Positions 2,503 through 52,116 of a stretch of DNA of 64,000 nucleotides are shown piece after piece; positions within the stretch are counted from its first letter, which is position 1; each line of letters begins with the position of its first letter. The position numbers were made by a program, and so were the translations under genes. This DNA comes from a virus, in the UHGV virus genome UHGV-0033546; one strand, given 5' to 3'. The notes below the pieces were generated by a model. It had not been told where the DNA came from and searched no databases. It was given only the letters and a program-made list of their open reading frames with translations.

Positions 2503-5500
2503 ATGGCCGAGATTAAAAGAAAGTTCAGAGCGGAAGACGGTCTGGACGCAGGTGGCGATAAAATAATCAACGTAGCTTTAGCTGATCGTACCGTAGGAAC
2601 TGACGGTGTTAACGTTGATTACTTAATTCAAGAAAACACAGTTCAACAATATGATCCAACTCGTGGATATTTAAAAGATTTTGTAATCATTTATGATAAC
2701 CGCTTTTGGGCTGCTATAAATGATATTCCAAAACCGGCAGGAGCTTTTAATAGCGTACGATGGAGAGCGTTACGTACTGATGCAAACTGGACAACTGTTT
2801 CATCAGGACCGTATCAATTAAAATCAGGCGAATCAATTTCGGTTAACACTGCAGCTGGTAATGACATTACATTTACTTTGCCATCTTCTCCAATTGATGG
2901 TGATACTATAGTTCTCCAAGATATTGGAGGAAAACCTGGAGTTAACCAGGTTTTAATTACAGCTCCGGTACAAAGCATTGTAAACTTCAGAGGTCAACAA
3001 GTACGCTCAGTACTAATGACTCATCCAAAATCACAGATAGTTTTAATTTTTAGTAATCGTCTGTGGCAAATGTATGTTGCTGATTATAGCAGAGAAGCGG
3101 CAGTTGTAACGCCAGCGAGTCTTTATCAAGCGCAATCAAACGATTTTATCGTGCGTAGATTTACTTCTGCTTCAGCAATTAATATTAAACTTCCGAGATT
3201 TGCTAATCACGGGGATATCATTAATTTCGTTGATTTGGATAAATTAAATCCTCTTTATCATACAATTGTTACTACATATGATGAAACGACTTCAGTGCAA
3301 GAAGTTGGAACTCATTCCATTGAAGGCCGTACATCTATTGATGGTTTCTTGATGTTTGATGATAATGAGAAACTGTGGAGATTGTTTGACGGGGATAGTA
3401 AAGCCCGTTTACGTATCATAACGACTAATTCAAACATTCGTCCAAATGAAGAAGTTATGGTATTTGGTGCGAATAATGGAACAACTCAAACGATTGAACT
3501 TCAGCTTCCGACCGATATTTCCATTGGTGATACTGTTAAAATTTCCATGAATTATATGAGAAAAGGACAAACAGTTAAAATCAAAGCTGCTGGTGAAGAT
3601 AAAATTGCTTCTTCAGTTCAATTGCTGCAATTCCCAAAACGTTCAGAATATCCGCCTGAAACTAAATGGGTGACTGTTCAAGAATTAGTTTTTAATGGCG
3701 AAACCAATTATGTTCCAGTTTTACAGCTTGCTTATATCGAAGATTCCGATGGAAAATATTGGGTTGTACAGCAAAACGTTCCAACTGTAGAAAGAGTAGA
3801 CTCTTTAAATAATTCTACCAGAGCAAGATTAGGCGTAATTGCTTTAGCTACACAGGCTCAAGCTAATGCAGATTTAGAAAATTCTCCACAAAAAGAATTA
3901 GCAATTACTCCAGAAACGTTAGCTAATCGTACTGCTACAGAAACTCGCAGAGGTATTGCAAGAATAGCAACAACTGCACAAGTTAACCAGGATACTACAT
4001 TCTCTTTTGCAGATGACCTTATCATCACTCCTAAAAAGCTGAATGAAAGAACTGCTACAGAAACTCGCAGGGGTGTCGCTGAAATTGCTACGCAGCAGGA
4101 AACTAACACAGGTACTGATGATACTACAATCATCACTCCTAAAAAGCTTCAAGCTCGTCAAGGTTCTGAGTCATTATCTGGTATTGTAACTTTTGTATCT
4201 ACTGCAGGTGCTACTCCAGCTTCTAGTCGTGAATTAAATGGTACAAATGTTTATAATAAAAATACTAATAATTTAGTAGTTTCACCTAAAGCCTTGGACC
4301 AGTATAAAGCTACTCCAACACAACAAGGTGCGGTAATTTTAGCAGTTGAAAGTGAAGTAATTGCTGGACAAAGCCAAGAAGGATGGGCAAATGCGGTTGT
4401 AACGCCAGAAACGTTACATAAAAAGACATCAACTGATGGAAGAATTGGTTTAATTGAAATTGCTACGCAAAGTGAAGTTAATACAGGAACTGATTATACT
4501 CGTGCAGTCACTCCTAAAACTTTAAATGACCGTAAAGCAACTGAAAGTTTAAGTGGTATAGCTGAAATTGCTACACAAGTTGAATTCGACGCAGGCGTCG
4601 ACGATACTCGTATCTCTACACCATTAAAAATTAAAACTAGATTTAATAGTACTGATCGTACTTCTGTTGTTGCTCTATCTGGATTAGTTGAATCAGGAAC
4701 TCTCTGGGACCATTATACCCTTAATATTCTTGAAGCAAATGAGACACAACGTGGTACACTTCGTGTGGCTACACAAGTTGAAGCTACTGCAGGAACATTA
4801 GATAATGTTTTAATAACTCCTAAAAAGCTTTTAGGTACTAAATCTACCGAATCGCAGGAAGGTGTTATTAAAGTTGCAACTCAGTCTGAAACTGTGACTG
4901 GAACGTCAGCAAATACTGCTGTATCTCCAAAAAATTTAAAATGGATTGTGCAGAGTGAACCTACTTGGGCAGCTACTACCCTGGTAAGAGGTTTTGTTAA
5001 AACTTCATCTGGTTCAATTACATTCGTTGGTAATGATACAGTTGGGTCAACGCAGTCATTAGAATTATACGAAAAAAATAGCTATGCAGTATCGCCATAT
5101 GAATTAAACCGTGTATTAGCAAATTATTTGCCGTTAAAAGCAAAAGCTGCAGATAGTAATTTATTAGATGGTCTAGATTCATCTCAGTTCATTCGTAGGG
5201 ATATTGCGCAGACGGTTAATGGTTCACTAACCTTAACCCAACAAACGAATCTGAGTGCCCCTCTTGTATCATCTAGTACTGCTACGTTTGGTGGGTCAGT
5301 TTCAGCAAATAGTACATTAACTATTTCTAATACTGGAACAGCAACTCGATTGATTTTTGAGAAAGGACCTCAAACTGGAACAAACCCAGCCCAAACGATG
5401 ACTGTCAGAGTGTGGGGAAATCAATTTAGTGGGGAATCAGACACGACACGTTCTACTGTATTTGAAGTTAGTGATGAAACATCTAGTCATTTTTATTCTC

Positions 5501-6372
5501 AGCGCAATAAAGCCGGAAATATAACATTTAATATCAACGGTACAGTAACTCCGATAAATGTTAATGCTTCAGGAACATTGAATGCAAATGGTGTAGCAAC
5601 ATTTGGTAATTCAGTTACTGCAACTGGTGAAATTATTTCTCGAAGCGCAAATGCTTTCCGTGCTATTAACGGAAATTATGGTTTCATTGTTCGCAATGAC
5701 GGATCAGTAACGAATTTTATGCTTACTGCATCAGGTGATCAGACTGGTGGATTTAATGGATTACGCCCATTAGCTATTAATAATGCATCTGGTCAAGTAA
5801 CGATTGGTGAAAGCTTAATAATCGCCAAAGGTGCTACTATAAATTCAGGTGGTTTGACTGTTAACTCGAGAATTCGTTCTCAGGGCACTAAAACATCTGA
5901 CTTATATACCCGTGCGCCAACATCTGATACTGTAGGATTCTGGTCAATCGATATTAACGATTCAGCCACTTATAACCAATTCCCAGGTTATTTTAAAATG
6001 GTTGAAAAAACTAATGAAGTGACTGGACTTCCATATTTAGAACGTGGCGAAGAAGTTAAATCTCCTGGTACACTGACTCAGTTTGGTAACACACTTGATT
6101 CGCTTTACCAAGATTGGATTACTTATCCAACAACTCCAGAAGCGCGTACCACTCGCTGGACGCGTACATGGCAGAAAACCAAAAACTCTTGGTCAAGTTT
6201 TGTTCAGGTATTTGATGGAGGTAACCCTCCTCAACCGTCTGATATCGGTGCTTTACCATCTGATAATGCTACAATGGGTAATCTTACCATTCGTGATTTC
6301 TTACGAATTGGTAATGTTCGCATTATTCCTGACCCAGTGAATAAAACTGTTAAATTTGAATGGGTTGAATAA
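2503..6372 (+). CDS. 34: Long tail fibre proximal subunit gp34
   Basis: 1289-aa ORF, same length as T4 gp34; first gene of the 34-38 operon; GGAG RBS. Confidence 0.95.
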   Translation: MAEIKRKFRAEDGLDAGGDKIINVALADRTVGTDGVNVDYLIQENTVQQYDPTRGYLKDFVIIYDNRFWAAINDIPKPAGAFNSVRWRALRTDANWTTVSSGPYQLKSGESISVNTAAGNDITFTLPSSPIDGDTIVLQDIGGKPGVNQVLITAPVQSIVNFRGQQVRSVLMTHPKSQIVLIFSNRLWQMYVADYSREAAVVTPASLYQAQSNDFIVRRFTSASAINIKLPRFANHGDIINFVDLDKLNPLYHTIVTTYDETTSVQEVGTHSIEGRTSIDGFLMFDDNEKLWRLFDGDSKARLRIITTNSNIRPNEEVMVFGANNGTTQTIELQLPTDISIGDTVKISMNYMRKGQTVKIKAAGEDKIASSVQLLQFPKRSEYPPETKWVTVQELVFNGETNYVPVLQLAYIEDSDGKYWVVQQNVPTVERVDSLNNSTRARLGVIALATQAQANADLENSPQKELAITPETLANRTATETRRGIARIATTAQVNQDTTFSFADDLIITPKKLNERTATETRRGVAEIATQQETNTGTDDTTIITPKKLQARQGSESLSGIVTFVSTAGATPASSRELNGTNVYNKNTNNLVVSPKALDQYKATPTQQGAVILAVESEVIAGQSQEGWANAVVTPETLHKKTSTDGRIGLIEIATQSEVNTGTDYTRAVTPKTLNDRKATESLSGIAEIATQVEFDAGVDDTRISTPLKIKTRFNSTDRTSVVALSGLVESGTLWDHYTLNILEANETQRGTLRVATQVEATAGTLDNVLITPKKLLGTKSTESQEGVIKVATQSETVTGTSANTAVSPKNLKWIVQSEPTWAATTLVRGFVKTSSGSITFVGNDTVGSTQSLELYEKNSYAVSPYELNRVLANYLPLKAKAADSNLLDGLDSSQFIRRDIAQTVNGSLTLTQQTNLSAPLVSSSTATFGGSVSANSTLTISNTGTATRLIFEKGPQTGTNPAQTMTVRVWGNQFSGESDTTRSTVFEVSDETSSHFYSQRNKAGNITFNINGTVTPINVNASGTLNANGVATFGNSVTATGEIISRSANAFRAINGNYGFIVRNDGSVTNFMLTASGDQTGGFNGLRPLAINNASGQVTIGESLIIAKGATINSGGLTVNSRIRSQGTKTSDLYTRAPTSDTVGFWSIDINDSATYNQFPGYFKMVEKTNEVTGLPYLERGEEVKSPGTLTQFGNTLDSLYQDWITYPTTPEARTTRWTRTWQKTKNSWSSFVQVFDGGNPPQPSDIGALPSDNATMGNLTIRDFLRIGNVRIIPDPVNKTVKFEWVE
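3891..4944 (+). repeat. Degenerate tandem peptide repeats (about 40 aa, at least 8 copies) inside gene 34
   Basis: recurring pattern ...TPxxL..R.ATE(T/S)xxGxxxIAT(Q)xExxxGTDxT... visible in the gp34 translation. Confidence 0.7.
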
Positions 6373-8223: not shown

Positions 8224-11200
8224 ATGGCTACTTTAAAACAAATACAATTTAAAAGAAGCAAAACGGCAGGTCAACGTCCAGCTGCTTCAGTATTAGCCGA
8301 AGGTGAATTGGCTATAAACTTAAAAGACCGTGTACTTTTTACTAAAGATGACCAAGGAAATATTATTGATTTAGGTTTTGCTAAAGGCGGTAGTATTGAC
8401 GGGAATGTTATTCATAAAGGCAATTATAACCAAACTGGCGATTATACTTTAAACGGTACATTCACCCAGACTGGTAATTTTAATTTAACCGGTATTGCTC
8501 GAGTAACTCGTGATATTATTGCTGCTGGCCAGATTATGACTGAAGGCGGAGAACTTATTACAAAAAGTTCAGGTACATCACATGTTCGTTTTTTCGATGG
8601 CAATAGCCGCGAACGCGGAATCATTTTTTCTCCTGCTAATGATGGATTAACTACACAAGTAATTAACATCAGAGTTCAAGATTACAAAGCCGGTTCGGAA
8701 AATACTTTTTCTTTTAGCGGTAATGGTCTTTTCACATCGCCGGAAGTTTCTGCATGGAAATCTATGTCAACTCCCCAGATTTTGACTAACAAAGTCATTA
8801 CTAATAATAAATCTACGAGTGATTATGACATTTATTCGATGGCAGACAATGTTCCACTGTCTGAAAGCACTACTGCTATTAATCATCTACGCGTCATGCG
8901 CAATGCAGTCGGTTCTGGTATTTTCCATGAAGTTAAAGATAATGATGGAATAACTTGGTATAGTGGAGATGGATTAGATGCTTATCTTTGGTCATTTACC
9001 TGGAGCGGCGGAATTAAATCAAGCCACTCAATTTCTATCGGTTTAACACCCGGTAATAAAGATTATTCAATATTAGGACCATCTAGCATTGCTTTAGGAG
9101 ATAATGATACTGGATTTAAATGGCATCAAGACGGATATTATTTCAGCGTTAATAATGGAACAAAAACGTTTTTATTTAGCCCTAGCGAAACAACTAGCCT
9201 AAGAAAATTTGTAGCTGGATATTCTACTAATGGAACCGATTTAACTACTCCTCCGACTGAAAACTATGCTCTTGCTACTGTCGTGACATATCACGACAAT
9301 AACGCGTTTGGAGATGGTCAGACTCTTTTGGGGTATTATCAAGGCGGTAGATATCACCATTATTTTCGTGGAAGAGGAACAACTAATATTAATACCGCTG
9401 GAGGATTATTAGTTACTCCTGGTAATATTGATGTTATTGGCGGTTCTGTTAATATCGATGGTAGAAATAATGCTTCTACATTGCTATTGAAAGGTAACAC
9501 AACTGGTAGTAGTTCTGTGGATAACATGACAATTTCTGTGTGGGGTAATACATTTACTAATCCTAGCGAAGGTAATCGCAAAAATGTCATGGAAATTTCC
9601 GATGCAACTAGCTGGATGAGCTATATTCAAAGACTTACTACTGGTGAAGTAGAAATGAATGTTAACGGTTCATTTGAATCATCTGGTGTTACTGCTGGAA
9701 ATAGAGGAGTTCACACAACAGGTGAAATTTCATCTAGTGCCGTGAATGCACTCCGTATTTGGAATGCAGATTATGGGGCCATTTTTAGACGTTCAGAAGG
9801 TAATCTTCATATTATTCCAACTGCTTATGGTGAAGGCAAAAATGGTGATATTGGTCCACTTCGTCCATTTAGTATTGCTTTGGATACTGGTAAGGTTGTT
9901 ATTCCTGACTTGGATTTAAGTTATGCTTCTTTTGCCGCAAACGGTTATATTAAATTTGGCGGTCATGGCGCAGGTGCCGGCGGTTATGATATTCAGTATG
10001 TTCAAGCGGCTCCTATTTTCCAGGAAATCGATGATGATGCTATAAGCAAATATTATCCTATTGTTAAACAGAAGTTTTTAAATGGTAAAGCCGTTTGGTC
10101 TTTAGGTACTGAAATTAATTCTGGTACATTTGTTTTACATCATTTGAAAGAAGATGGTTCACAAGGCCATACATCAAGATTTAATGCTGACGGTACAGTC
10201 AATTTCCCCGATAACGTTCAAGTCGGTGGTGGTGAAGCTACTATTGCTCGTAATGGTAATATTTTCTCAGATATTTGGAAATCGTTTACTTCAGCAGGAG
10301 ACACTACAAATATTCGCGATGCGATAGCTACTCGTGTTGCCAAAGAAGGCGATACGATGACTGGCAAATTAATCGTTAAAAGAGGCTCTGACGCTATTAA
10401 CATTGCTGCCGATGAAAATGATTCTGGCTATTTACTTGGAACATCGGGTGGAGCGAATTCATGGTACATCGGTAAAGGAGGAGCAGATGACACTGCTTCA
10501 TTTTATAATTTCAAAACTACCGCAGGAATTACTCTTAATAGTGTAGGTGATATTGATTTTAATGTTAAAAATCAATCTACTGCCGCTTCATTAAATTTTT
10601 ATCGTTTATATTTAAATGGAAGACAGTGGACAGCTACACAAGGTCACGGCTATAATAATCAATGGCAAACAGAAGCCCCATTCTTCGTTGACTTTGGCGA
10701 ATCTGTTCCGAAAGATAGTTATATGCCTATAATTAAAGGAAGAAGCCAAATCATTAACGAAGGATATGCCACAAAGGCAGATTTTGGTATTATTCGATTG
10801 GGTGGAAATGCTACTTGGGGAAATGCAGTAATTCGTGTTGGTTCTGCGGAAAGCGGAGATAGCAGTCATCCTAATGCAATATTTGTGTTTCAGGCTAATG
10901 GCGATTTTAAAGCTCCGGCTGGCCTTCGTGCTGGTGTTAACTTGGGTGTCGGCACAATTCCAATATGGGGCGGAGCATCTATCGCCATCGGTGATGATGA
11001 TACCGGTTTAGTTCATGGCGGCGATGGTCGAATTAATATGTATGCTAACGCGCAGCATATTGCATCATGGGGCGCGGGCTATCAATCTCATCCGGGCCTT
11101 TGGGATTCAAATGGGGCTCTTTGGACAGAAGTTGGCAAAGCAATTATTTCTCATGGCCATTTAGTTCAGGCGAATGACAGTTATTCCACATATGTCCGTG

Positions 11201-11550
11201 ATGTTTATGTCCGCTCTGATATTCGTGTTAAAAAGGACCTTGTTAAATTTGAAAATGCTTCTGAGAAGCTTTCTAAAATTAACGGTTACACTTATATGCA
11301 GAAGCGAGGTCTAGATGAAGACGGTAATCAGAAGTGGGAACCTAATGCCGGTTTAATTGCTCAAGAAGTTCAAGCTATTTTACCTGAATTAGTTGAAGGC
11401 GATCAGGATGGTGAAGCTTTACTTCGTTTGAACTATAATGGTGTAATCGGTTTAAATACAGCTGCTATCAATGAGCATACCGCAGAAATTGCAGAACTTA
11501 AATCCGAAATTGAAGAGCTTAAAAAATTAGTTAAATCATTGTTAAAATAA
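8224..11550 (+). CDS. 37: Long tail fibre distal subunit gp37 with C-terminal intramolecular chaperone domain
   Basis: 1108-aa ORF after 36; last 111 aa (SDIRVKKDL...[15 protein letters not shown]...coiled coil) match the peptidase S74 / endosialidase chaperone pattern. Confidence 0.9.
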
Positions 11551-11554
11551 AATG

Positions 11555-11570
11555 AGGGGCTTCGGCCCCT
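11555..11570 (+). other. UUCG-tetraloop RNA hairpin between 37 and 38
   Basis: AGGGGC-TTCG-GCCCCT immediately before the gp38 RBS. Confidence 0.6.
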
Positions 11571-11581
11571 TGGAGGTTTAT

Positions 11582-12376
11582 ATGGCAGTTGAAGGACCGT
11601 GGGTAGGATGGTCTGCAAGGGTACAGACTGGAGACCCTTGGATGGCAGGAGCAGCCGTAAGATTAAGAATGGGTGTTCCGTTTTGGATGAGTAATATGAT
11701 AGGTCGATCTGTTGAAGTAATTCACACACTTGGAGCGGACCATAACTTCAATGGTCAATGGTTCCGAGATAGATGTTTTGAGGCAGGTAGTGCACCTATA
11801 GTGTTTAATATTACCGGAAATTTGGTATCATATTCTAGAGACGTTCCTTTATTCTTTATGTATGGAGATACACCTAATGAATATGTTCAGTTGAATATTG
11901 GTGGTGGCGTCCATATGTGGGGTAGAGGTGGACAAGGTGGATGGACTCATTCCGGCGGAGATGGTAATGGTCAACAAGGTGGTCATTGTATTCAAAATGA
12001 CATCGGTGGACGATTAAGAATTAATAACGGTGGAGTAATTTGCGGCGGAGGTGGAGGCGGAGGTGGTATCGCTTATCGTCCCCACTCTGGTGCAAATTGG
12101 CAAGATATTGGTGGTGGTGGAGGAAGACCATTTGGACCAGGTGGAGGCGGAGGTTATTCCGGCGGCGCAGCTTCTTATGATGGCCCAGGAGGTGGTTATA
12201 ATTATGGTAATGCTCACTCTGGACAAGGTGGTGATGCTGGCGCAAATGGACAAAATGCCTGGCATGATGGCGGTAAAGTACTAAAAGTCGGTGCTGGCGG
12301 AGCTGCTGGTTATGCCGTCATAGGGTCCGCTCCAACATGGCAAAATGTTGGAGTAATATATGGTCCAAGAGTATAA
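11582..12376 (+). CDS. 38: Receptor-recognising adhesin gp38 (T2 type, glycine-rich motifs)
   Basis: 264 aa from ATG 11582 (GGAGG RBS); the ORF-track start at 11552 lies inside the hairpin; poly-Gly blocks (GGGGGGGG, GGGGG, GGGGG) separated by short variable segments. Confidence 0.85.
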
Positions 12377-12406
12377 TTTGAATAAATACCCTTAAAAGGA
12401 GGGTCT

Positions 12407-13063
12407 ATGGCAGCACCTAGAATATCATTTTCGCCCTCTGATATTCTATTTGGTGTTCTAGATCGCTTGTTCAAAGATAATGCTACCGGGAAAGTTCTTG
12501 CTTCCCGGGTAGCTGTCGTAATTCTTTTGTTTATGATGGCGATTGTTTGGTATAGGGGAGATAGTTTCTTTGAGTACTATAAGCAATCAAAGTATGAAAC
12601 ATACAGTGAAATTATTGAAAAGGAAAGAAATGCACGCTTTGAATCTGTCGCCCTGGAACAACTCCAGATAGTTCATATATCATCTGAGGCAGACTTTAGT
12701 GCGGTGTATTCTTTCCGCCCTAAAAACTTAAACTATTTTGTTGATATTATAGCATATGAAGGAAAATTACCTTCAACAATAAGTGAAAAATCGCTTGGAG
12801 GATATCCTGTTGATAAAACTATGGATGAATATGCAGTTCATTTAAATGGACGTCATTATTATTCCGACTCAAAATTTGCTTTTTTACCAACTAAAAAGCC
12901 TACTCCCGAAATAAACTACATGTACAGTTGTCCATATTTTAATTTGGATAATATCTATGCTGGAACGATAACCATGTACTGGTATAGAAATGATCATATA
13001 AGTAATGACCGCCTTGAATCAATATGTGCTCAGGCGGCCAGAATATTAGGAAGGGCTAAATAA
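12407..13063 (+). CDS. t: Holin T
   Basis: 218 aa; one N-terminal transmembrane segment plus large C-terminal domain; position after 38. Confidence 0.9.
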   Translation: MAAPRISFSPSDILFGVLDRLFKDNATGKVLASRVAVVILLFMMAIVWYRGDSFFEYYKQSKYETYSEIIEKERNARFESVALEQLQIVHISSEADFSAVYSFRPKNLNYFVDIIAYEGKLPSTISEKSLGGYPVDKTMDEYAVHLNGRHYYSDSKFAFLPTKKPTPEINYMYSCPYFNLDNIYAGTITMYWYRNDHISNDRLESICAQAARILGRAK

Positions 13064-13336
13064 TTACTTGTTTGTATACATCTCTAGATATCGATATACA
13101 CCCTCAAAACCCTCGTTGAATTCGTCGATGAGGGTTTTCTTATCTTCCTGAGTTAATTCAGAAACAATTTTACGGAATGAATTCTGATTTAACTTTCTAC
13201 CTTCATGCGTTACTCCAATCTCATTCAGAAATGCAATAAAATTAGCACGATTCTCAACAATATCTTCTCGGGAAAATTTAATCAAAATAGACGCAACAGT
13301 AATAATTTCACGAACTGTATCAATATTTTTATTCAT
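13064..13336 (-). CDS. asiA: Anti-sigma70 factor AsiA
   Basis: 90-aa ORF; sequence matches T4 AsiA as I recall it. Confidence 0.95.
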   Translation of the reverse strand: MNKNIDTVREIITVASILIKFSREDIVENRANFIAFLNEIGVTHEGRKLNQNSFRKIVSELTQEDKKTLIDEFNEGFEGVYRYLEMYTNK

Positions 13337-13348
13337 TAACTATACCAC

Positions 13349-13501
13349 TCAATTAGTTGACTTTGTTATAATATCATCAGACGTTTGATTTGTAAACTGG
13401 TCTGCGGTATTTTCTTCAAAAATTTTTTCTACGAATTCTTTGAACGACTTACGTTCCTGAGCTACATTATGCTCGATTACTTTTTCAAGATTATGACTCA
13501 T
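13349..13501 (-). CDS. Small hypothetical ORF (50 aa) between arn and asiA
   Basis: ATGA overlap with arn stop; contains the asiA early promoter, so coding status uncertain. Confidence 0.3.
   Translation of the reverse strand: MSHNLEKVIEHNVAQERKSFKEFVEKIFEENTADQFTNQTSDDIITKSTN
13368..13397 (-). promoter_or_regulatory. T4-type early promoter upstream of asiA
   Basis: minus strand GTTTAC-N18-TATTAT. Confidence 0.55.
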
Positions 13502-13776
13502 TCGAAATAATCTTCAATTTCGTAATCATGGACATAAATCATTATAGTTTTTAATACATCATCAATACTTTTTCCTGGCGCTGGAATTACATAAAAATAT
13601 CTTGCTTTTGAGAGGTCTTTATAAGTTCCAACCAAGAAATCATTATTCTCGAGATGTAGTTCTTCAACTAATTCATTAACAATTGAATGATATAGATTTG
13701 GTAGAAACTTATATAGCTTTTCTAGAATATCAATTTTGATTGTGTATTGAACCACAGACTGAGAATCAATAATCAT
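13498..13776 (-). CDS. arn: Anti-restriction nuclease Arn (McrBC inhibitor)
   Basis: 92-aa ORF next to asiA; size and position as T4 arn. Confidence 0.8.
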   Translation of the reverse strand: MIIDSQSVVQYTIKIDILEKLYKFLPNLYHSIVNELVEELHLENNDFLVGTYKDLSKARYFYVIPAPGKSIDDVLKTIMIYVHDYEIEDYFE

Positions 13777-13854
13777 AGACCTTCCCCCTTATGTTTCTGT
13801 TTGTGATTAGATTCTTTAAACGCTTTCTTCTTATCTTTATGAACAGAAGCTTTA

Positions 13855-14079
13855 TTAAAATTGTGCTTTGCGACTAAATTGTTCATAGTGTTGAATTACC
13901 TCTCTTAAACATTTGCATGTGAATGAAAACTTTTTAGCTACACCACATTCAAATATATGTTCTCTTAAATCACGTGTGTCAGTATATCCCATCTCAACAA
14001 TAAAGTGTCTTATTAGATTTTTATCTTTATCATTGAGAGAATTAAAATAATCGGATTTTGAATTAATTTCCCTGGCCAA
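13855..14079 (-). CDS. Hypothetical early protein (74 aa)
   Basis: ORF in the arn-motA block; no recognisable motif. Confidence 0.5.
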   Translation of the reverse strand: MAREINSKSDYFNSLNDKDKNLIRHFIVEMGYTDTRDLREHIFECGVAKKFSFTCKCLREVIQHYEQFSRKAQF

Positions 14080-14359
14080 ATTGAATCACCTTCAGTTGAC
14101 GTTTTAATTCTTTTATCATTTCTTCGTTCATCGCAATATAAAGATCGCGTAAAGCGGGTTTTAGCATTCCATTTACTGGAGAACTAAATGGGCACACATA
14201 ATCTTTTCCTACGAGCCTTTTAGCGAATTCCATATCACAAAACTGAAATGCTGGTTCATTGGCATAAATGCCCCAATTAGTTGACATCATTTTATTGGCA
14301 TATTCCAGTGCCTGGATTTGATTCTTAATTCCATCAATTTGAAACTTTTTAATATTCAT
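14063..14359 (-). CDS. Hypothetical early protein (98 aa)
   Basis: ORF in the arn-motA block; overlaps neighbours by a few nt. Confidence 0.5.
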   Translation of the reverse strand: MNIKKFQIDGIKNQIQALEYANKMMSTNWGIYANEPAFQFCDMEFAKRLVGKDYVCPFSSPVNGMLKPALRDLYIAMNEEMIKELKRQLKVIQFGQGN

Positions 14360-14820
14360 TAGTAAAGGTCCTCAGAGTAAAGTTCTTTTTCACTACCACC
14401 ACGTTCAATACGTACTTGTCCGGCGTAAGTTGCAATAATCATTGCTTCTTCACGTGTCCAATAATTACTATATTGGTCAATAAACCCTTGGTCATCATCA
14501 CAAACTTGTTGAGTAACTAATTGAGGTTTAACTACATCTAAAACTTCTGCCATATCTTTAGAATAATGACGAGCACCTGGAATAACAAGAGTTCGTCCAT
14601 CTTTTAGTTTAAAACGGTTGGCTGCGCAAACAATTCGTCGTTGATACTTTTGGTTTTCGTCCCAATATGCAGACTGCCAACAAATTTCAGGAACTTCTTT
14701 CAGAATATCTTCTTCTGTGCATTTATAACCATGTGCTTTAAATTTTTCAACAAGACTTTCTGGAGTTTCACGAGATAAAGGAACATTCAGCATTTTTAAA
14801 CGATTAATAAATGGGTTCAT
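14359..14820 (-). CDS. Hypothetical early protein (153 aa)
   Basis: ORF with start/stop overlap to neighbours. Confidence 0.55.
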
Positions 14821-15146
14821 TTAAACCATCCTTTAATACGCTGCCACAAAGTTTTCTGTTGAGCTTTGTTAACACCAATTGAGCGAATAACTGGTTGAGA
14901 TTCCTGGAATTCTTTATAATCAGCAAGGTAAATTTCGTAAGCCGATTGAACAAAGGTACTAATCGCTGCCATGAAGTTCTTGCGAATTCCCATAGAGGCT
15001 TCAGAACCACCACGGATGATTAAATATTTGCCAGTCTTAATCTTTACGATAGTTCCAAGATAAGCTCCATGGTACCAGATGTCCCATCCCTCTTGAGTGG
15101 GTTCTGCACAACGACGAAGTTCATTAACAATTTCTAACTTGTTCAT
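14817..15146 (-). CDS. Hypothetical early protein (109 aa)
   Basis: ORF immediately downstream of motA. Confidence 0.55.
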
Positions 15147-15156
15147 TATTTATTCC

Positions 15157-15792
15157 TCACAGTTCAGATGCTACGGTGATTACTGCTTCAATGTTTTCTG
15201 CTGAGCGTTTAATGTCAAGATACACATTACCGTTTTTAGCAATTTTACATGACATTCCGATATCAGTAAATTTCTGAATATGATGTTCCATCATTTTGTA
15301 TCCAAAAATTCGCATATTTCCATTGTTGTTAATTTCAAAATTGCGAATTCCATGAGTGCGTTTTTCTAAAATAGCAAGATAGTTACTGCGGTAAGTTTCA
15401 ACCTTTTTAAGAACAAATCCATTTTCATCTAAAAGTTTTAACATGAGGTCTTTATCTTCTTCCATATCGGAAGTAATCTCACGAGCTTTACGAGTTGCTC
15501 GTTTTTTCAGAAGTTCCGGAGCATTTTCTTGTGCGTATAAAGTTGCTGCATTTGAAATAATATCCTGGGCTTCACCAGTAATGATTAATCCATCACCTGA
15601 TTTCTCCACCAGGCCTTTTTTAATCAATACCCCAATATTACTATTAACTACTGCGTTACCTAAATCTGGATGCACCTCACGAACTTCTGCAGCTGTAATG
15701 AAATCTTTCTTAGCAATGGTAATTAAAATCGCAGCAGTTTTTTCATTCAGAACATCGTTAGAAGCTTTGATGATGTAAGTTACTTTAGACAT
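15157..15792 (-). CDS. motA: Middle-transcription activator MotA
   Basis: 211-aa ORF; length and sequence match T4 MotA from memory. Confidence 0.9.
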   Translation of the reverse strand: MSKVTYIIKASNDVLNEKTAAILITIAKKDFITAAEVREVHPDLGNAVVNSNIGVLIKKGLVEKSGDGLIITGEAQDIISNAATLYAQENAPELLKKRATRKAREITSDMEEDKDLMLKLLDENGFVLKKVETYRSNYLAILEKRTHGIRNFEINNNGNMRIFGYKMMEHHIQKFTDIGMSCKIAKNGNVYLDIKRSAENIEAVITVASEL

Positions 15793-30825: not shown

Positions 30826-32145
30826 TCACACATAAAACACATCATAACGACCACGGGTGACACCAACATAAAGAAGTTGTTGAGCTAATTCAGCATCTGC
30901 ATAATGAATACAAGGCGTATAGATGAAAGCACGGTCTACAGACATGCCCTGAGCTTTATGGAATGTCGATGCAGGAAGTGCTTTCACTTTACTAAACTGT
31001 GATTTAGCATCCCAAAAATCACTCCATGGAGCTTTTCCGCCTTTGTTCCAATTTTTATAAGTTTCTGCCGTTTTACCTAAAAATAGGTTAAACTTATACA
31101 GCTCTTCATCAGATGAAATTATTTTAATCTTTTCACGATAATATTCATCATCGCCGTAAGTTTCTACTGTTAAATCCCAATGACGAATTAGATATTCTCC
31201 AGAAACACCACGAGCTTTAACAAAGGTTGATGTATACTCTGCTTCTATAATACGAACTAATTGTCCGTTGTTAAAAATAATTTCTGATACAGGCTTTCCA
31301 TCAATTTTATATGTTTTAATTAATGGTTCCTGCATTACAATAATTTCACCAACGATAAAATCTTTATCAGTTTCAAAAATCTTTTTACGAATGATGCTAT
31401 TTAACTTGTCAACAGATTTATTCGTAAATGCCATTACACGATTTTCAAACAAATCATCTAGTGATTTTACGATTGAAAAATAATTTACCATAAAATCGCG
31501 TAAAGCAGTATCACCAGTAAATCCACGTACTCCATGCCCGTCAACAACTTTATCATAAATCCACTTACCGTTGCGAACATCAGTAGCTACATCAATAATA
31601 GGAGCATTACTGCGTTTAACTTCAGTGAGTTCACACTGATAAAAGTCTTTGTGCGTAAAGAATGGACTGATATAAGCAGTGTTTTCTCCTGGGTCAACGG
31701 GTCTAATTTGCTTATTATCACCTATTCCAATTATAGTACACCACGGCGGGATAGTTGAAAGCAGAATTTTAAATAGCTTTCTATCATACATTGACACTTC
31801 GTCGCAGATTAATACTCTGCATTTAGCTAAATCCGGTACTTCTTTTTGTTCAAAAAGAACGTTTTCTTCATATGTTACCGGGTTAATTTTGAGAATACTG
31901 TGAATAGTACTCGCTTCTTTCCCCGATAGTTTTGAAAGAATCTTTTTAGCCGCATGTGTAGGAGCTGCTAAAATAATACCAGTTTCGCCTGTAGATATTA
32001 AGGCTTCAATGATGAACTTAGTAAGAGTAGTCTTACCAGTACCAGCAGGTCCATTAATAGTTACATGATGTTTCTTTTCTTTAATAGCCCTCATAACGAT
32101 GTTAAAGGCATTTTTCTGGCCTTCTGTCAAATCATCAAATGTCAT
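30826..32145 (-). CDS. dda: Dda DNA helicase (SF1B)
   Basis: 439-aa ORF; Walker A GPAGTGKT; matches T4 Dda. Confidence 0.95.
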   Translation of the reverse strand: MTFDDLTEGQKNAFNIVMRAIKEKKHHVTINGPAGTGKTTLTKFIIEALISTGETGIILAAPTHAAKKILSKLSGKEASTIHSILKINPVTYEENVLFEQKEVPDLAKCRVLICDEVSMYDRKLFKILLSTIPPWCTIIGIGDNKQIRPVDPGENTAYISPFFTHKDFYQCELTEVKRSNAPIIDVATDVRNGKWIYDKVVDGHGVRGFTGDTALRDFMVNYFSIVKSLDDLFENRVMAFTNKSVDKLNSIIRKKIFETDKDFIVGEIIVMQEPLIKTYKIDGKPVSEIIFNNGQLVRIIEAEYTSTFVKARGVSGEYLIRHWDLTVETYGDDEYYREKIKIISSDEELYKFNLFLGKTAETYKNWNKGGKAPWSDFWDAKSQFSKVKALPASTFHKAQGMSVDRAFIYTPCIHYADAELAQQLLYVGVTRGRYDVFYV

Positions 32146-32453
32146 CGTAAATTCCCTGCAATTGGTATACTAACAATACGCCCAGTATCTAAAATTCGCC
32201 GATATAATCTTTGTGTGTCTACATCAGGCTTAACATGTTTAACTTCTATTTTATTAAACCAAAACTTGCGTGGAGTCTCAACTAATCTCGGAATTCCCAT
32301 ACCTAAAGCTAGTCGATACTGATCTTTAAGAGTTGTAAATACTTTATCAGCAATCTCCCTTTCAAAAAATACAGCAGGACGATGTTCATCAAGCGGAACT
32401 GGCACCGCAAATCCATCTTTATCTCTATACACTATCGCATATACATAAACCAT
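32142..32453 (-). CDS. Hypothetical protein (103 aa)
   Basis: ORF. Confidence 0.5.
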   Translation of the reverse strand: MVYVYAIVYRDKDGFAVPVPLDEHRPAVFFEREIADKVFTTLKDQYRLALGMGIPRLVETPRKFWFNKIEVKHVKPDVDTQRLYRRILDTGRIVSIPIAGNLR

Positions 32454-32454
32454 A

Positions 32455-33210
32455 TTATCCTCGGATAAGTTTAAAAATTGAACAATTTAGCGGGTATCCT
32501 CTTTTCAGTTTAAGTTTATCAATGAAAGATAAGTTTTGATACCGCTCTACACCTTGAATAATTTTATCACACATATCATATTGCATTTCTGCTTCTGACA
32601 ACTTTTTCACAGTTTTCCAATCAGAGCCTTTAAGAAGAACGTTCAGTTTAACAATTTCAGCGCCTTCTGCTATGCGAGAACCGTCAATACGTGCTTTAAG
32701 TGTTATAATCCTTAGCTTAATGTCAGAGGTCTGTTTTGATTTAGAAAGCTGAGAAATGTGTTCAATTCGGTTTTCACGTTTTTTCTGTATAGCTTTAATT
32801 TGATTATAAGTCTTTTTGATTTTAGCCCATTTCTTTTCATCTAAATTTAGTTTATGAACTTTTTTCGCAGATGAACGACCAATTCGCAAAGCAAATAAAT
32901 CACGCTTTTCAATCAACTCTTCTAAAGTATAATCAGAACGAAATGTATTATACTTTTTCTTTACTGCAATAACATTCCCTTTAATGTATCCAACGTTATT
33001 ATCAAAACGTTCTAATGATAATTTCTCGCCTTCAATACGATTATCAAAAGGTTCTCCCGAGTAAGCACAAACTTTTTGATTTAAAATGTTCTTAATGTAA
33101 TTGAAGTCTAAGTTAAAATCTTTAGAACGTCTTTTTGCAGATGCCTGAGTATGCTCTAAGCGACGTTTAATTTTACGAATTTGATTATTAGACATATTAT
33201 GCAGTTTCAT
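32455..33210 (-). CDS. Srd-like protein (251 aa)
   Basis: by position between dda and modA as in T4; no diagnostic motif. Confidence 0.45.
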   Translation of the reverse strand: MKLHNMSNNQIRKIKRRLEHTQASAKRRSKDFNLDFNYIKNILNQKVCAYSGEPFDNRIEGEKLSLERFDNNVGYIKGNVIAVKKKYNTFRSDYTLEELIEKRDLFALRIGRSSAKKVHKLNLDEKKWAKIKKTYNQIKAIQKKRENRIEHISQLSKSKQTSDIKLRIITLKARIDGSRIAEGAEIVKLNVLLKGSDWKTVKKLSEAEMQYDMCDKIIQGVERYQNLSFIDKLKLKRGYPLNCSIFKLIRG

Positions 33211-33246
33211 ATTTTTCTCACATCTTACGGACGGTTAACTACTTAT

Positions 33247-33276
33247 ACTATAACATTTTTACCTTAGCTTGTAAAC
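33247..33276 (-). promoter_or_regulatory. T4-type early promoter
   Basis: minus strand GTTTAC-N18-TATAGT. Confidence 0.55.
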
Positions 33277-33288
33277 AACTTTATGTAA

Positions 33289-33316
33289 AAATGCTTTAAA
33301 ACTTTCGTGGTATAAT
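33289..33316 (+). promoter_or_regulatory. Middle-promoter-like element on the plus strand, antisense to modA
   Basis: plus strand AATGCTTTA (perfect MotA box) -N12- TATAAT; no plus-strand ORF downstream. Confidence 0.3.
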
Positions 33317-33333
33317 GAATCTAAGTCCTTCCA

Positions 33334-33936
33334 TTATAGATTAAATCCTTCAAAATCAAGAGTATAGATAGTGTATGTTGAATACTTTTTATACTCATAT
33401 CTATCTGCAATTCTAAATACACTTCCAGCTGGTATCATTACTTCTTGTTCATCTGAAACTAATTCCATATTACGATAGCGATGGCTATCCGGAAACTTAA
33501 AGCTTGGATTGTATTCTTTACAGCGTAGAGCTTTTATAGCATACTCCTGGAAATTAAATACCATAGGAGCTTTGAATTCAAAAATAATTTGTGTATTGTA
33601 TTCTAATCCAGAAGCAAAATGTAGAGCTATATTTTTATCATATGAAGCTGATACTACTTTATCAAATGTAATAATATCAATTCCTTGATTTAACACTTGT
33701 TTAGTCTCGACTGGAACACCTCTCCAAAGAGGTTTATCGTTTGGTTCCAAACGAGATTTGATTATTTCATTTAACCAAGTGTGGTCATCTGGCTTATTAG
33801 TAATACAATGAATTAAAAGTTCAATTTCGGATAAATTAAACCCTTCAGAAAGTAATTCTTCACGAATAGAAGCACGCACCGATGCATCCATTGATTTGAT
33901 TTTAAAATCATTTAATTGCATTGCTGAATATTTCAT
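33334..33936 (-). CDS. modA: ADP-ribosyltransferase ModA
   Basis: 200-aa ORF, T4 ModA length, upstream of srd. Confidence 0.75.
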   Translation of the reverse strand: MKYSAMQLNDFKIKSMDASVRASIREELLSEGFNLSEIELLIHCITNKPDDHTWLNEIIKSRLEPNDKPLWRGVPVETKQVLNQGIDIITFDKVVSASYDKNIALHFASGLEYNTQIIFEFKAPMVFNFQEYAIKALRCKEYNPSFKFPDSHRYRNMELVSDEQEVMIPAGSVFRIADRYEYKKYSTYTIYTLDFEGFNL

Positions 33937-34568
33937 TCAACTACCTCAATATCATAAACTCTAAATGTTCCAAATGAATCGTGTAATTTTTCTTTTGAAA
34001 TAGAAGTTATTTTATACTTTCCAATTGGAACCATCCATTCTTGTTCATGTACAATCATCATTAAGTTATCAGTACGTTCTGAATCTAATCCATCAGTATC
34101 TTCATATGTATACTTGAACTCAGTATTTGGAGAAGAAAGTATAATATCGCTGATATGGTCAGAGTAATTAAAAGCTTTATCAGTTTTTAAGCGAAATATT
34201 ATTTCAGTGAAATATTCAGCATAAGAAAAAGAGCATGCTGTATGCAAACTAGTAGTAAATGAATCTACTCTATTCGTTGAAAACACTTCTCCAACTTGCA
34301 AATCTTTAATGAGTTCTTTTGTCGATTTTGATATACCACGATATAGCTGATAAGGTGATTTAGTTAAATGCTTTTTAACGATTTTATTCAACTGCCGATG
34401 AAGAGCTTCATTCTTTTTGGCTTCCATACATTGCCAAAGAATTGACTGTTCAAAGTCAGTAAATTTTTCACAGACCTTTTTATACATATCATATTGAAAA
34501 TCGACGCTTTCAGCTTTTATAGATAACTGTTCAACATCTGCAGGATTAATAATCATGATAGCCTCCAT
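33933..34568 (-). CDS. modB: ADP-ribosyltransferase ModB
   Basis: 211-aa ORF paired with modA. Confidence 0.7.
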   Translation of the reverse strand: MEAIMIINPADVEQLSIKAESVDFQYDMYKKVCEKFTDFEQSILWQCMEAKKNEALHRQLNKIVKKHLTKSPYQLYRGISKSTKELIKDLQVGEVFSTNRVDSFTTSLHTACSFSYAEYFTEIIFRLKTDKAFNYSDHISDIILSSPNTEFKYTYEDTDGLDSERTDNLMMIVHEQEWMVPIGKYKITSISKEKLHDSFGTFRVYDIEVVE

Positions 34569-37622: not shown

Positions 37623-37823
37623 ATGGTACAAAAATTAATGGCACTTGTCAATGCCATAAAAGGTAATAAAAAGCGTATAGCTTTTACTATTTCTGCTATG
37701 GTAGGAATTTTACTCTGGAACTTTATTTTATCGCCAATTGCTATTGCTCATGGCGTCAATATTCCAGTAGTTACTCTTGATACATTCGTAGATTTAGCAT
37801 TTGCTTTAGTTGGGCTAATTTAA
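37623..37823 (+). CDS. Plus-strand small membrane protein (66 aa) between 56 and 61
   Basis: AAGGAGG RBS 7 nt before ATG; hydrophobic; opposite orientation to all neighbours. Confidence 0.5.
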   Translation: MVQKLMALVNAIKGNKKRIAFTISAMVGILLWNFILSPIAIAHGVNIPVVTLDTFVDLAFALVGLI

Positions 37824-38848
37824 ATTTTGGCATATTTAGATAGCCGCATTTTAGCCATTAACCCCTGGGCAATATTATTTTTCATATATTCCATAATTTG
37901 TTCAGGGGTTGCACCTTCCTTTCTAATCATATCATTAACATCTTTTGATTTCCAGGGAGATTTATCCCAGAACATAACCCTTTCTCCTGCATTGACTAAT
38001 TTAGTCATTCGCTTAATAGTGTCAGGATGACGAGGTTCATTATCTAAGACCCACACACGTCTATCTTTAAATGGAACAATTTCTAGGTCTAATTGACCAC
38101 CCGTAATAGCTATACCATTTTCAATAAAAAGTGAATCTATAGGTCCTTCTAGAACATATACATCACCATCTTTAACTCGTTCGACTCCATATATTTTTGT
38201 TGCCTCAGGATAAGCTTTAATGGTGATATATTTTTGAGGAGCATCTTTCTTTAATGCACGTCCTTGAAAAGACTCAGCTTTTCCATTAGCATTATAAATT
38301 GGAATAACAAGACGAGGCTCAGAAATTTCCTTTTTGTATGTTCCTGGTGCTATACTATTAACCAATTTTGGCCATTCAGTTGTAAACCAAAGATATTTCC
38401 ATTTATCCTTTGGAATACAACGAGCTTTTACGTATTTTATAATTGGATGGTCTTCCGCCAGTTTATCTAATCTAACACATGACGGAAGAGATTTAATTAT
38501 TTTCTTCTCAGGCTGTTTAGGAAGTTCTTTAGGTTTTTCTACTGGACGACTTTTACCTTTTTCTTTTCTTATTTCAAAGATATACTCGCGATATAAATCA
38601 GGTTCAAACTCCTTTAAATATATTCCGATTGGTGCATGATAGTTACAGTTATAACAATGAATATTTCCTTCATTATTATCGCCATAATACCATCCACGGG
38701 CTTTATTTTGATCGGTTTTTGAATCTCCACAAACAGGGCATCTAAACCGCAATTTAAAAGTTGAACTATTATTTACTTGTGTGAATTTAGGTAAATGAGC
38801 CAATGCACGGTATGCAAACTCATTATCAATCCAAGGTATTGATGACAT
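37820..38848 (-). CDS. 61: DNA primase gp61
   Basis: 342 aa; zinc ribbon CPVCGD...HCYNC plus TOPRIM; T4 gp61 length. Confidence 0.95.
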   Translation of the reverse strand: MSSIPWIDNEFAYRALAHLPKFTQVNNSSTFKLRFRCPVCGDSKTDQNKARGWYYGDNNEGNIHCYNCNYHAPIGIYLKEFEPDLYREYIFEIRKEKGKSRPVEKPKELPKQPEKKIIKSLPSCVRLDKLAEDHPIIKYVKARCIPKDKWKYLWFTTEWPKLVNSIAPGTYKKEISEPRLVIPIYNANGKAESFQGRALKKDAPQKYITIKAYPEATKIYGVERVKDGDVYVLEGPIDSLFIENGIAITGGQLDLEIVPFKDRRVWVLDNEPRHPDTIKRMTKLVNAGERVMFWDKSPWKSKDVNDMIRKEGATPEQIMEYMKNNIAQGLMAKMRLSKYAKI

Positions 38849-51232: not shown

Positions 51233-52116
51233 TTCAATTTCCTATTTACATAATAGTTAGACCAGGACCGTACAGCACCCTGATAAGATTCGTCGTTAAA
51301 CCCATTAGCTACTGCAATTTTACGAAATTTATTATAACTCGGTTTTCCGTAAGCATGCCATAAAGATTTTAATTCATCTTCATGTTCAATCCAAGTTCCT
51401 CTAGCTTTAGATTTTCTAAATTTTGATTTGAATTCCGGTGAATTATTTCTAACAGTTGCTTGAATTGAAGCTCTCTGTCTTCTTTCAGCATTATTCCATA
51501 ACTCTTTTTGAGATTTAGAAATTTTTGATTTTACACTTTCTGAATTCATTATATCACTAAACTTTTTAGCATAACTGCAATCAAGATATTTCAATTTCAT
51601 CTTATTTGAAAGTTTAAGCTTTTTCTCATCGGTCCAGTGATTCTTCATTGAATTAGATATTTTGTATTTTACGTCAGAACTATGTTTGTAACCTTTACGA
51701 ATACCAACATAATCGGGCGTAATTTCAGATTGCGAAAGCTTTACAATTTTTCCAGTTAAAACATTTTTATATGTTCCATATCCTTTAGCGCCAATTAAAG
51801 TATTTTCATCTGCGTATGCTTTATTAAAATATTTTATATTACTTTTTGCTTTAACTTTTAATTGAAAAAATCTTTCCAATTTTCTTGGATCTAATATAGT
51901 TTCAGCTAAAATTTTGACGGTATATTTAGTGGTTTTAATAAGCTCAAAATATTCATCGCTATAACTCGATGACACGCTTCCAGTATAAATCTTTCCAGCT
52001 GAATCAATTATATTTGTTCCATCGAAAATTGCGTCAATTTTCGAACCTATATAATAACATGGAAAAATATTTTTAGCTTCCCGCTCTGGAAAGCTAATAA
52101 GATATACTAAATTCAT
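51229..52116 (-). CDS. Freestanding GIY-YIG-like homing endonuclease (seg-like) with NUMOD3-like repeats
   Basis: 295 aa between 45 and rpbA; N-terminus MNLVY...YYIGSK; two K-SxEx-KIS-S-K-W repeats; paralogous to ORF at 1-234. Confidence 0.6.

Follow-up and report, generated by a model that had tools for sequence, protein, structure and literature searches.

A conserved MotA-type element antisense to modA in T4-like phages resembles the uvsY promoter and may shut off the modB-modA-srd unit

The srd-modA intergenic region and its plus-strand element

The window analyzed here, the whole stretch of 64,000 nucleotides from virus genome UHGV-0033546, belongs to a Tequatrovirus (T4-like phage), and the 2.2 kb round the element described below were 97% identical to phage teqdroes and matched 503 phage records. 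As the initial annotation had stated, all nearby genes are encoded on the minus strand, namely dda (30826-32145), dda.1 (32142-32453), srd (32455-33210), modA (33334-33936) and modB (33933-34568). The product of modA, an RNA polymerase ADP-ribosyltransferase, is 97-98% identical to annotated ModA; modB is the upstream gene of the same early unit, while srd lies downstream of a 123-nt intergenic region that separates it from modA. At the 5' end of srd (33193-33201), 9 extra nucleotides are present in the window phage and in JLBYU22 (251 aa vs. 248 aa).

Within this intergenic region, positions 33289-33316 of the plus strand read AAATGCTTTA-N12-TATAAT, an element of the middle-promoter type that points into modA. 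It consists of a MotA box, AAATGCTTTA (33289-33298, with the core TGCTTTA at 33292-33298), centred at about -30; a 12-nt spacer, AAACTTTCGTGG (33299-33310), whose 3' end forms the TGn of an extended -10 (T33308 G33309 G33310); and the sigma-70 -10 hexamer TATAAT (33311-33316). The consensus MotA box has been given as (a/t)(a/t)(a/t)TGCTTtA (PMC2988021), and AAATGCTTTA agreed at every position with the form (a/t)(a/t)(a/t)TGCTT(t/c)A centred at -30. The distance between box and -10, 12 bp in the window and 12-13 bp in other genera, fell within the 12 ± 1 bp of middle promoters, and the -10 had the excellent TATAAT typical of these promoters and, in this lineage, was also preceded by TGn. No sigma-70 -35 was found for the plus-strand element: the hexamers 16-18 nt upstream of the -10, read by eye, matched TTGACA at no more than one of six positions, and a sigma-70 scan of the region did not call the site.

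The exact pattern occurred once in the 64-kb window when both strands were scanned, and in none of 100 dinucleotide shuffles, which confirmed the earlier reading of a perfect MotA box at the canonical distance from a perfect -10. Analytically, the exact 9+6 motif was expected 0.0018 times per window at N12 and 0.005 times at N11-13, and the 7-nt core TGCTTTA 0.05 times at N11-13; the chance level of about 0.05 estimated initially was thus correct for the core, and for the full match (0.0018-0.005) it was conservative. A chance match is ruled out as an explanation by the shuffles, by these expectations and by the conservation described below. Weaker plus-strand combinations of MotA box and -10 were seen at 37800-37826 (-10 TAAATT) and 51815-51840 (-10 TATATT).

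The trans-acting factors for this promoter class are encoded in the same window, both on the minus strand: the activator gene motA at 15157-15792 (Pfam MotA_activ, 4.7e-61; MotCF, 2.6e-67) and the co-activator gene asiA at 13064-13336 (Pfam AsiA, 1e-42). With both factors encoded and the sequence features of MotA promoters all in place, the description of the element as middle-promoter-like gained support. Homologues of MotA were found in 1143 phage records, including Mosigvirus JS09 and Klebsiella, Enterobacter and Salmonella phages, a count that refers to phage records overall.

Sigma appropriation has its reference system in T4, where the cataloguing of middle promoters goes back decades. 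The element is absent from the 58 identified T4 middle promoters listed by start site (Hinton 2010, Table 1, PMC2988021), where no entry falls near T4 11897, its predicted start, and the nearest ones are 11138 (Pdda.1) and 16813 (P56/69); the match of T4 coordinates to AF158101 was checked on six promoters, including Pdda.1. This absence may reflect that primer-extension searches were made upstream of genes. Pdda.1 itself (2639-2680 of T4 locus L001; homologous to about 32554-32595 of the window, minus strand) is located within srd, and its MotA box, AAATGCAATA, is poor. Its transcript has been reported to be NAD-capped (bioRxiv 10.1101/2024.04.04.588121), and its activity despite the poor box indicates that active middle promoters tolerate deviations in the box.

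An orthologue of the element was recognized by sequence in RB69, where 'Pm:12081' (plus strand, '1 bp ins') had been predicted as a middle promoter by a hidden Markov model with a score of 7.9 (Nolan et al. 2006, Additional file 4). It likewise lies between srd and modA on the plus strand and reads AAATGCTTTA-N13-TATAAT; it stands, however, as a line in a supplementary table of a paper that has no discussion of it, no remark on its antisense orientation and no comparison with T4 or the uvsY promoter (P_uvsY). A T4 dRNA-seq preprint reports 150 T4 start sites, of which 22 are antisense (bioRxiv 10.1101/2024.04.04.588121). In full-text literature searches, no description of an antisense promoter or RNA at modA was found. 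Antisense transcription of T4 gene 32 was reportedly described by Belin et al. in 1987 (cited in PMC2988021 and PMC3014915), so that antisense RNA from a prereplicative region of T4 has a precedent.

The window contained just one other orphan middle promoter in antisense orientation, at 4712-4739 on the minus strand, inside the plus-strand gene 34 (2503-6372). It reads ATTTGCTTCA-N13-TATAAT and corresponds to T4 P34i, the ori(34)/oriG promoter. Its box and -10 were kept in most gp34 homologues at 66-85% amino-acid identity; as P34i lies inside the gp34 coding sequence, coding constraint confounds this conservation. Both P34i and the modA element are orphan promoters of the MotA type (TGCTTCA-N13-TATAAT in P34i), antisense to a gene and conserved across genera, but P34i is catalogued, sits within the coding sequence of a late gene and has a demonstrated origin function, whereas the modA element is intergenic and a putative promoter.

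Conservation of the element and position of the srd early promoter

Conservation within the genus was analyzed in an alignment of 21 distinct Tequatrovirus sequences, including T4, T6, RB14, RB32, RB3, pSs-1 and six IMG/VR contigs (six close ModA loci were present in IMG/VR in total). None of the 16 positions of box and -10 (10 and 6, respectively) was variable, and the spacer was always 12 nt long, while 25 of the 107 other intergenic positions varied (Fisher p = 0.02). Variable sites within the spacer were 33302 and 33307, and one indel was located just 5' of the element. Positions 33317-33332 were likewise invariant in the 21 sequences, so that conservation within the genus is not by itself specific to the two hexamers.

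In other Tevenvirinae, homologues of ModA with 25-38% identity mark a syntenic modB-modA-srd-dda.1-dda block. An element of the type TGCTTT-N12/13-TATAAT, antisense toward the 3' end of modA, was present in the modA-srd spacer of all members of these clades that were examined. It reads TGCTTTA-N12-TATAAT in Dhakavirus (VR5, ABTNLsp5), TGCTTTA-N13-TATAAT in Mosigvirus (G2469, RB69, ZQ3) and in EP02SG, an unclassified Escherichia phage of Mosigvirus-like sequence, cGCTTTt-N12-TATAAT in Gaprivervirus (VR26, TH15), TGCTTTt-N13-TATAAT in Karamvirus (Ent31 and Karamvirus-like IMG/VR genomes) and in Gelderlandvirus (NP4), and TGCTTTc-N13-TATAAT in the Klebsiella phages Roth20 and K65_evo1. The element was thus retained in seven clades, Tequatrovirus and six others, despite intergenic DNA that has diverged beyond recognition. 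Conservation in relatives, which the initial annotation had proposed as a check, was therefore found in 21 of 21 Tequatroviruses and in six further clades.

When nine intergenic regions from six clades were aligned with MAFFT (243 columns, mean identity 55%), 15 of the 243 columns were invariant; 11 of these 15 made up GCTTT and TATAAT, and the twelfth was the G after the -10. The clustering of invariant columns was highly significant (hypergeometric p = 3e-14), although blocks of this kind also serve the aligner as anchors. TATAATG was invariant in all nine aligned sequences and in each additional member examined. Between genera, the sequence of the spacer could not be aligned while its length stayed at 12-13 nt, and a purine was found at the +1 position (the seventh nucleotide after the -10) in every genus. 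The constant distance between two conserved blocks, with a spacer that is free to vary, argues for a promoter and not for an RNA element. The sense RNA of the intergenic region showed no unusual folding in nine genomes (z from -0.7 to +1.6). The conserved orientation carries no weight here, as the orientation of the element is inherited anyway.

MotA has been reported to be absent from RB49 (Krischvirus; PMC1524935). In the 61-nt mod-srd spacer of this phage, where synteny is kept, no antisense element was found, which agrees with the reported lack of MotA. A single mod gene lies beside srd there, and the spacer (2857-2917 of RB49 locus L031) has a sense promoter only, TTGACA-N17-AATAAT.

The element shares the intergenic region with an early-type sigma-70 promoter of srd on the minus strand (33247-33276), composed of GTTTAC (33276-33271), a TGn and TATAGT (33252-33247). 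Its counterpart in the record of Yersinia phage fPS-90 is labelled 'predicted early promoter', and it is probably equivalent to T4 Pe11.5 of PMC6024815. In the window, the two promoters are arranged back-to-back, the MotA box being separated from the sense -35 by 13 nt, and in Tequatrovirus the MotA box occupies about -50 to -58 of the srd promoter. In Karamvirus and Gelderlandvirus, the element and the srd early promoter face each other, the latter being on the side of modA, and their -10 hexamers are 13 bp apart. No sense srd promoter was found at the modA-srd spacer of the Klebsiella phages; in these phages, as in Karamvirus and Gelderlandvirus, the conserved blocks are located within the srd 5'UTR. 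The element was interlocked with the srd early promoter or its 5'UTR in every genus examined, and it was better conserved than the sense promoter that drives srd. The position of the latter varied (upstream in four genera, downstream in two), while the two blocks and their spacing remained constant.

The srd 5'UTR contains a further motif at window positions 33224-33234 (TCTTACGGACG on the plus strand, CGTCCGTAAGA on the sense strand). Together with the purine-rich stretch and the srd start codon ATG that come after it, CGTCCGTAAGA was kept in all clades examined except Karamvirus and Gelderlandvirus; its location in the Klebsiella phages is within the antisense promoter's spacer. The motif is able to fold into a small hairpin (CGUC/GACG) and may serve srd as a signal for translation or processing. 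In one subclade of Tequatrovirus, 7 nt of the srd 5'UTR are deleted (33220-33226).

Likeness to the uvsY promoter and the predicted start

The T4 uvsY promoter, which is also the promoter of oriF, reads AATGCTTCA-N13-TATAAT-GAATCT-A-AGTCCATCCA. A 23-nt block of the window, CGTGGTATAATGAATCTAAGTCC (33306-33328, plus strand), is identical to it from -17 to +6, and after one mismatch TCCA (33330-33333) is again common to both. In two complete and one near-complete Tequatrovirus contigs of IMG/VR, the 20-mer GGTATAATGAATCTAAGTCC was present in exactly two copies per contig, one 5' of uvsY and one at the modA element. No similarity beyond the consensus was found between the element and the mapped T4 middle promoters Pdex.2, Pdda.1, P56/69, Pdam and P61.

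The likeness thus comprises the MotA box AATGCTT(C/T)A, TGG-TATAAT, the identity from -17 to +6 and an A+T-rich downstream region. The two promoters differ in that the spacer is 13 nt in P_uvsY and 12 nt in the modA element, and in that P_uvsY drives uvsY in the normal early/middle direction, whereas the modA element has no gene downstream and opposes modA. The near-identity over 23 nt is specific to Tequatrovirus; the two promoters of Karamvirus-like genomes have only TATAATGGTTT in common. On these sequence grounds the modA element is a paralogue of P_uvsY, and the 23-nt identity indicates that promoter modules get copied within these genomes.

The start of P_uvsY has been mapped at T4 115371 (Table 1, PMC2988021). 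Since this is the same A in the identical 20-mer, the predicted start of the element was placed at A33323 (T4 11897), the seventh nucleotide after the -10 on the plus strand, which falls inside the interval 33323-33326 given initially for a start. The element is very likely competent as a promoter, because it shares its TGn, -10, discriminator and initially transcribed sequence with a MotA-dependent promoter that has been studied in depth.

The predicted antisense transcript and its possible roles

Transcription from A33323 would yield a non-coding RNA antisense to modA (33323-33936, plus strand) that may continue into modB. In all genera, the modA stop codon was separated by 10 to about 38 nt from the predicted +1, which lies beyond it, and by this geometry the RNA would be fully complementary to the modA mRNA.

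In agreement with the initial annotation, the element is not followed by a plus-strand ORF that has both an ATG start and a Shine-Dalgarno sequence, and none of the ORFs present was conserved: only GTG/TTG ORFs without Shine-Dalgarno were found. A hidden plus-strand gene was rejected, as these ORFs are lost in pSs-1 and absent in Dhakavirus VR5. The predicted antisense transcript of Mosigvirus (RB69, G2469) holds an ORF of 129-134 aa opposite modA, which in RB69 starts with an ATG at +64 without Shine-Dalgarno and which is absent in other genera.

Neither a defined 3' end nor a conserved structure, as would mark a discrete RNA, was detected in the predicted transcript. An Rfam scan of its region gave no match at E <= 1, its first 158 nt folded no better than shuffled sequences (z = 0.34), and no conserved intrinsic terminator was found on the plus strand in the window and three other genera. 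Two weak plus-strand hairpins at 33718-33754 were rejected as the end of the antisense RNA, as no terminator matching them was found on the antisense strand in the three other genera scanned. A structure or terminator of the sense RNA between modA and srd was also discarded, given the z values of -0.7 to +1.6 and a scan that found no intergenic terminator.

Taken together, it is highly probable that the element is an active and selected promoter of the MotA type. Our favored reading, to which we assign a probability of about 0.5, is that of a genuine, selected, MotA/AsiA-dependent promoter whose non-coding antisense transcript from A33323 would probably serve the shut-off of modB-modA-srd. Observed directly were the motif and its conservation, its paralogous relation to a mapped promoter, the activator genes and the absence of coding potential; the firing of the element in vivo, its timing and its effect are inferred. 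ModA, which is made only early, is highly toxic, and according to Hinton's review T4 must stop its early promoters by means yet to be found (PMC2988021). From this toxicity and the geometry of the locus, we infer a regulatory role in which the early modB-modA-srd unit would be shut off locally once MotA and AsiA appear.

Three routes could contribute to such a shut-off. Firstly, polymerase at the antisense promoter would compete with the srd early promoter. It would cover roughly 33268-33343 and thereby overlap the -35/upstream region of the srd promoter; the overlap would concern this upstream/-35 part in Tequatrovirus, Dhakavirus, Mosigvirus and Gaprivervirus, and the -10 and start site in Karamvirus and Gelderlandvirus. 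Secondly, read-through transcription that comes from the modB early promoter would be hit head-on. Thirdly, the antisense RNA could pair with the modA mRNA.

The main alternative role, which we consider unlikely, is that of a replication origin of the oriF/oriG type, where a MotA-dependent transcript would form a persistent R-loop in the A+T-rich DNA directly downstream and prime the rightward leading strand, the antisense coverage of modA being incidental. [quoted passage not shown] The promoter core of the modA element is that of a middle-mode promoter and is identical to oriF (P_uvsY) from -17 to +6, but P_uvsY is primarily a gene promoter, so that this identity is not specific to origins; moreover, the near-identity is limited to Tequatrovirus. 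As for the unwinding element, the 80 nt after A33323 were less stable (-88.1 kcal/mol, 2nd percentile) than the oriF region (-92.2 kcal/mol, 12th percentile). The first 80 nt of the predicted transcript, with 26% GC, ranked among the least stable 2% of the 80-mers of the window; overall the downstream DNA had 26-28% GC and fell at the 2nd-8th stability percentile, on a measure by which oriG does not stand out. Against this, T4 is A+T-rich throughout.

An origin role would also fit the resemblance to P34i/ori(34), an orphan promoter that is antisense in gene 34 (4739-4712) and conserved across genera. However, no origin is annotated near T4 11.9 kb (AF158101 has no rep_origin in 8500-15500), and reviews list only oriA-G (PMC3016281). 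The annotated oriA, for which the gene 56 transcript acts as primer, is found at T4 16763. A 'gene 69' origin spanning modA/srd was accordingly rejected as a link to oriA: both oriA and P56/69 (16813) lie about 4.9 kb away, so that the element is not oriA's known promoter. A generic 'origin-class' motif after the -10, common to the element and P34i, found no support either, given that the P34i sequence is dictated by the conserved gp34 peptide GTLWDHYT (the conserved peptide patterns of gp34 include ESGTLWDH) and that P_uvsY and the modA element of Karamvirus-like genomes share nothing but TATAATGGTTT. Silencing and origin roles are not mutually exclusive.

The element might also be a competent but functionless copy of P_uvsY, spread by recombination, whose antisense noise is removed by Rho. 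Gene conversion is suggested by the 23 nt that Tequatrovirus has in common with P_uvsY at this site, and no product, terminator or structure was found; nevertheless, the same junction was kept in seven clades while its surroundings diverged, with better conservation than that of the sense promoter of srd, which renders a copy without function quite improbable.

Finally, the conserved blocks could act on the sense strand, either as an UP-like region of the srd promoter or as an RNA signal (for processing, or as a translational operator) in the modA 3'UTR/srd 5'UTR, with the likeness to a promoter being a coincidence. With respect to the srd early promoter, the MotA box of Tequatrovirus lies at about -50 to -58, and in Karamvirus, Gelderlandvirus and the Klebsiella phages the blocks fall within the srd 5'UTR, which would be compatible with such a function; in addition, a preprint uses as a control a modB-modA sense transcript whose defined 3' end lies nearby (bioRxiv 10.1101/2024.04.04.588121). 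Yet the position of the sense promoter differs between genera while the two blocks and their spacing are fixed, neither unusual folding of the sense RNA (z from -0.7 to +1.6) nor an Rfam match was found, and the blocks not only match P_uvsY but also show the box, spacing and -10 of a promoter, together with its distance to +1 and a purine at that position. We therefore regard a sense-strand function as very improbable.

Returning to the silencing of modB-modA-srd, a wider proposal can be put forward tentatively, as a possibility that we would not yet call probable: the Tevenvirinae may possess a conserved, MotA-triggered 'off switch' that arose from a copy of the uvsY promoter, displaces the srd promoter and opposes modA/modB, and that could double, through an R-loop-prone transcript, as a so far unmapped origin of the oriF type. 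The locus presents a promoter of perfect consensus, conserved across genera and in the 'wrong' orientation, which is uncatalogued in T4, the reference system for sigma appropriation. If the off switch holds true, it would provide a concrete, locus-specific mechanism for the unexplained shut-off of early transcription in T4. If active, the element would represent either the first case of a conserved antisense regulator that is driven by MotA and acts on a toxic pair of early genes, or a third origin of the oriF/oriG type.
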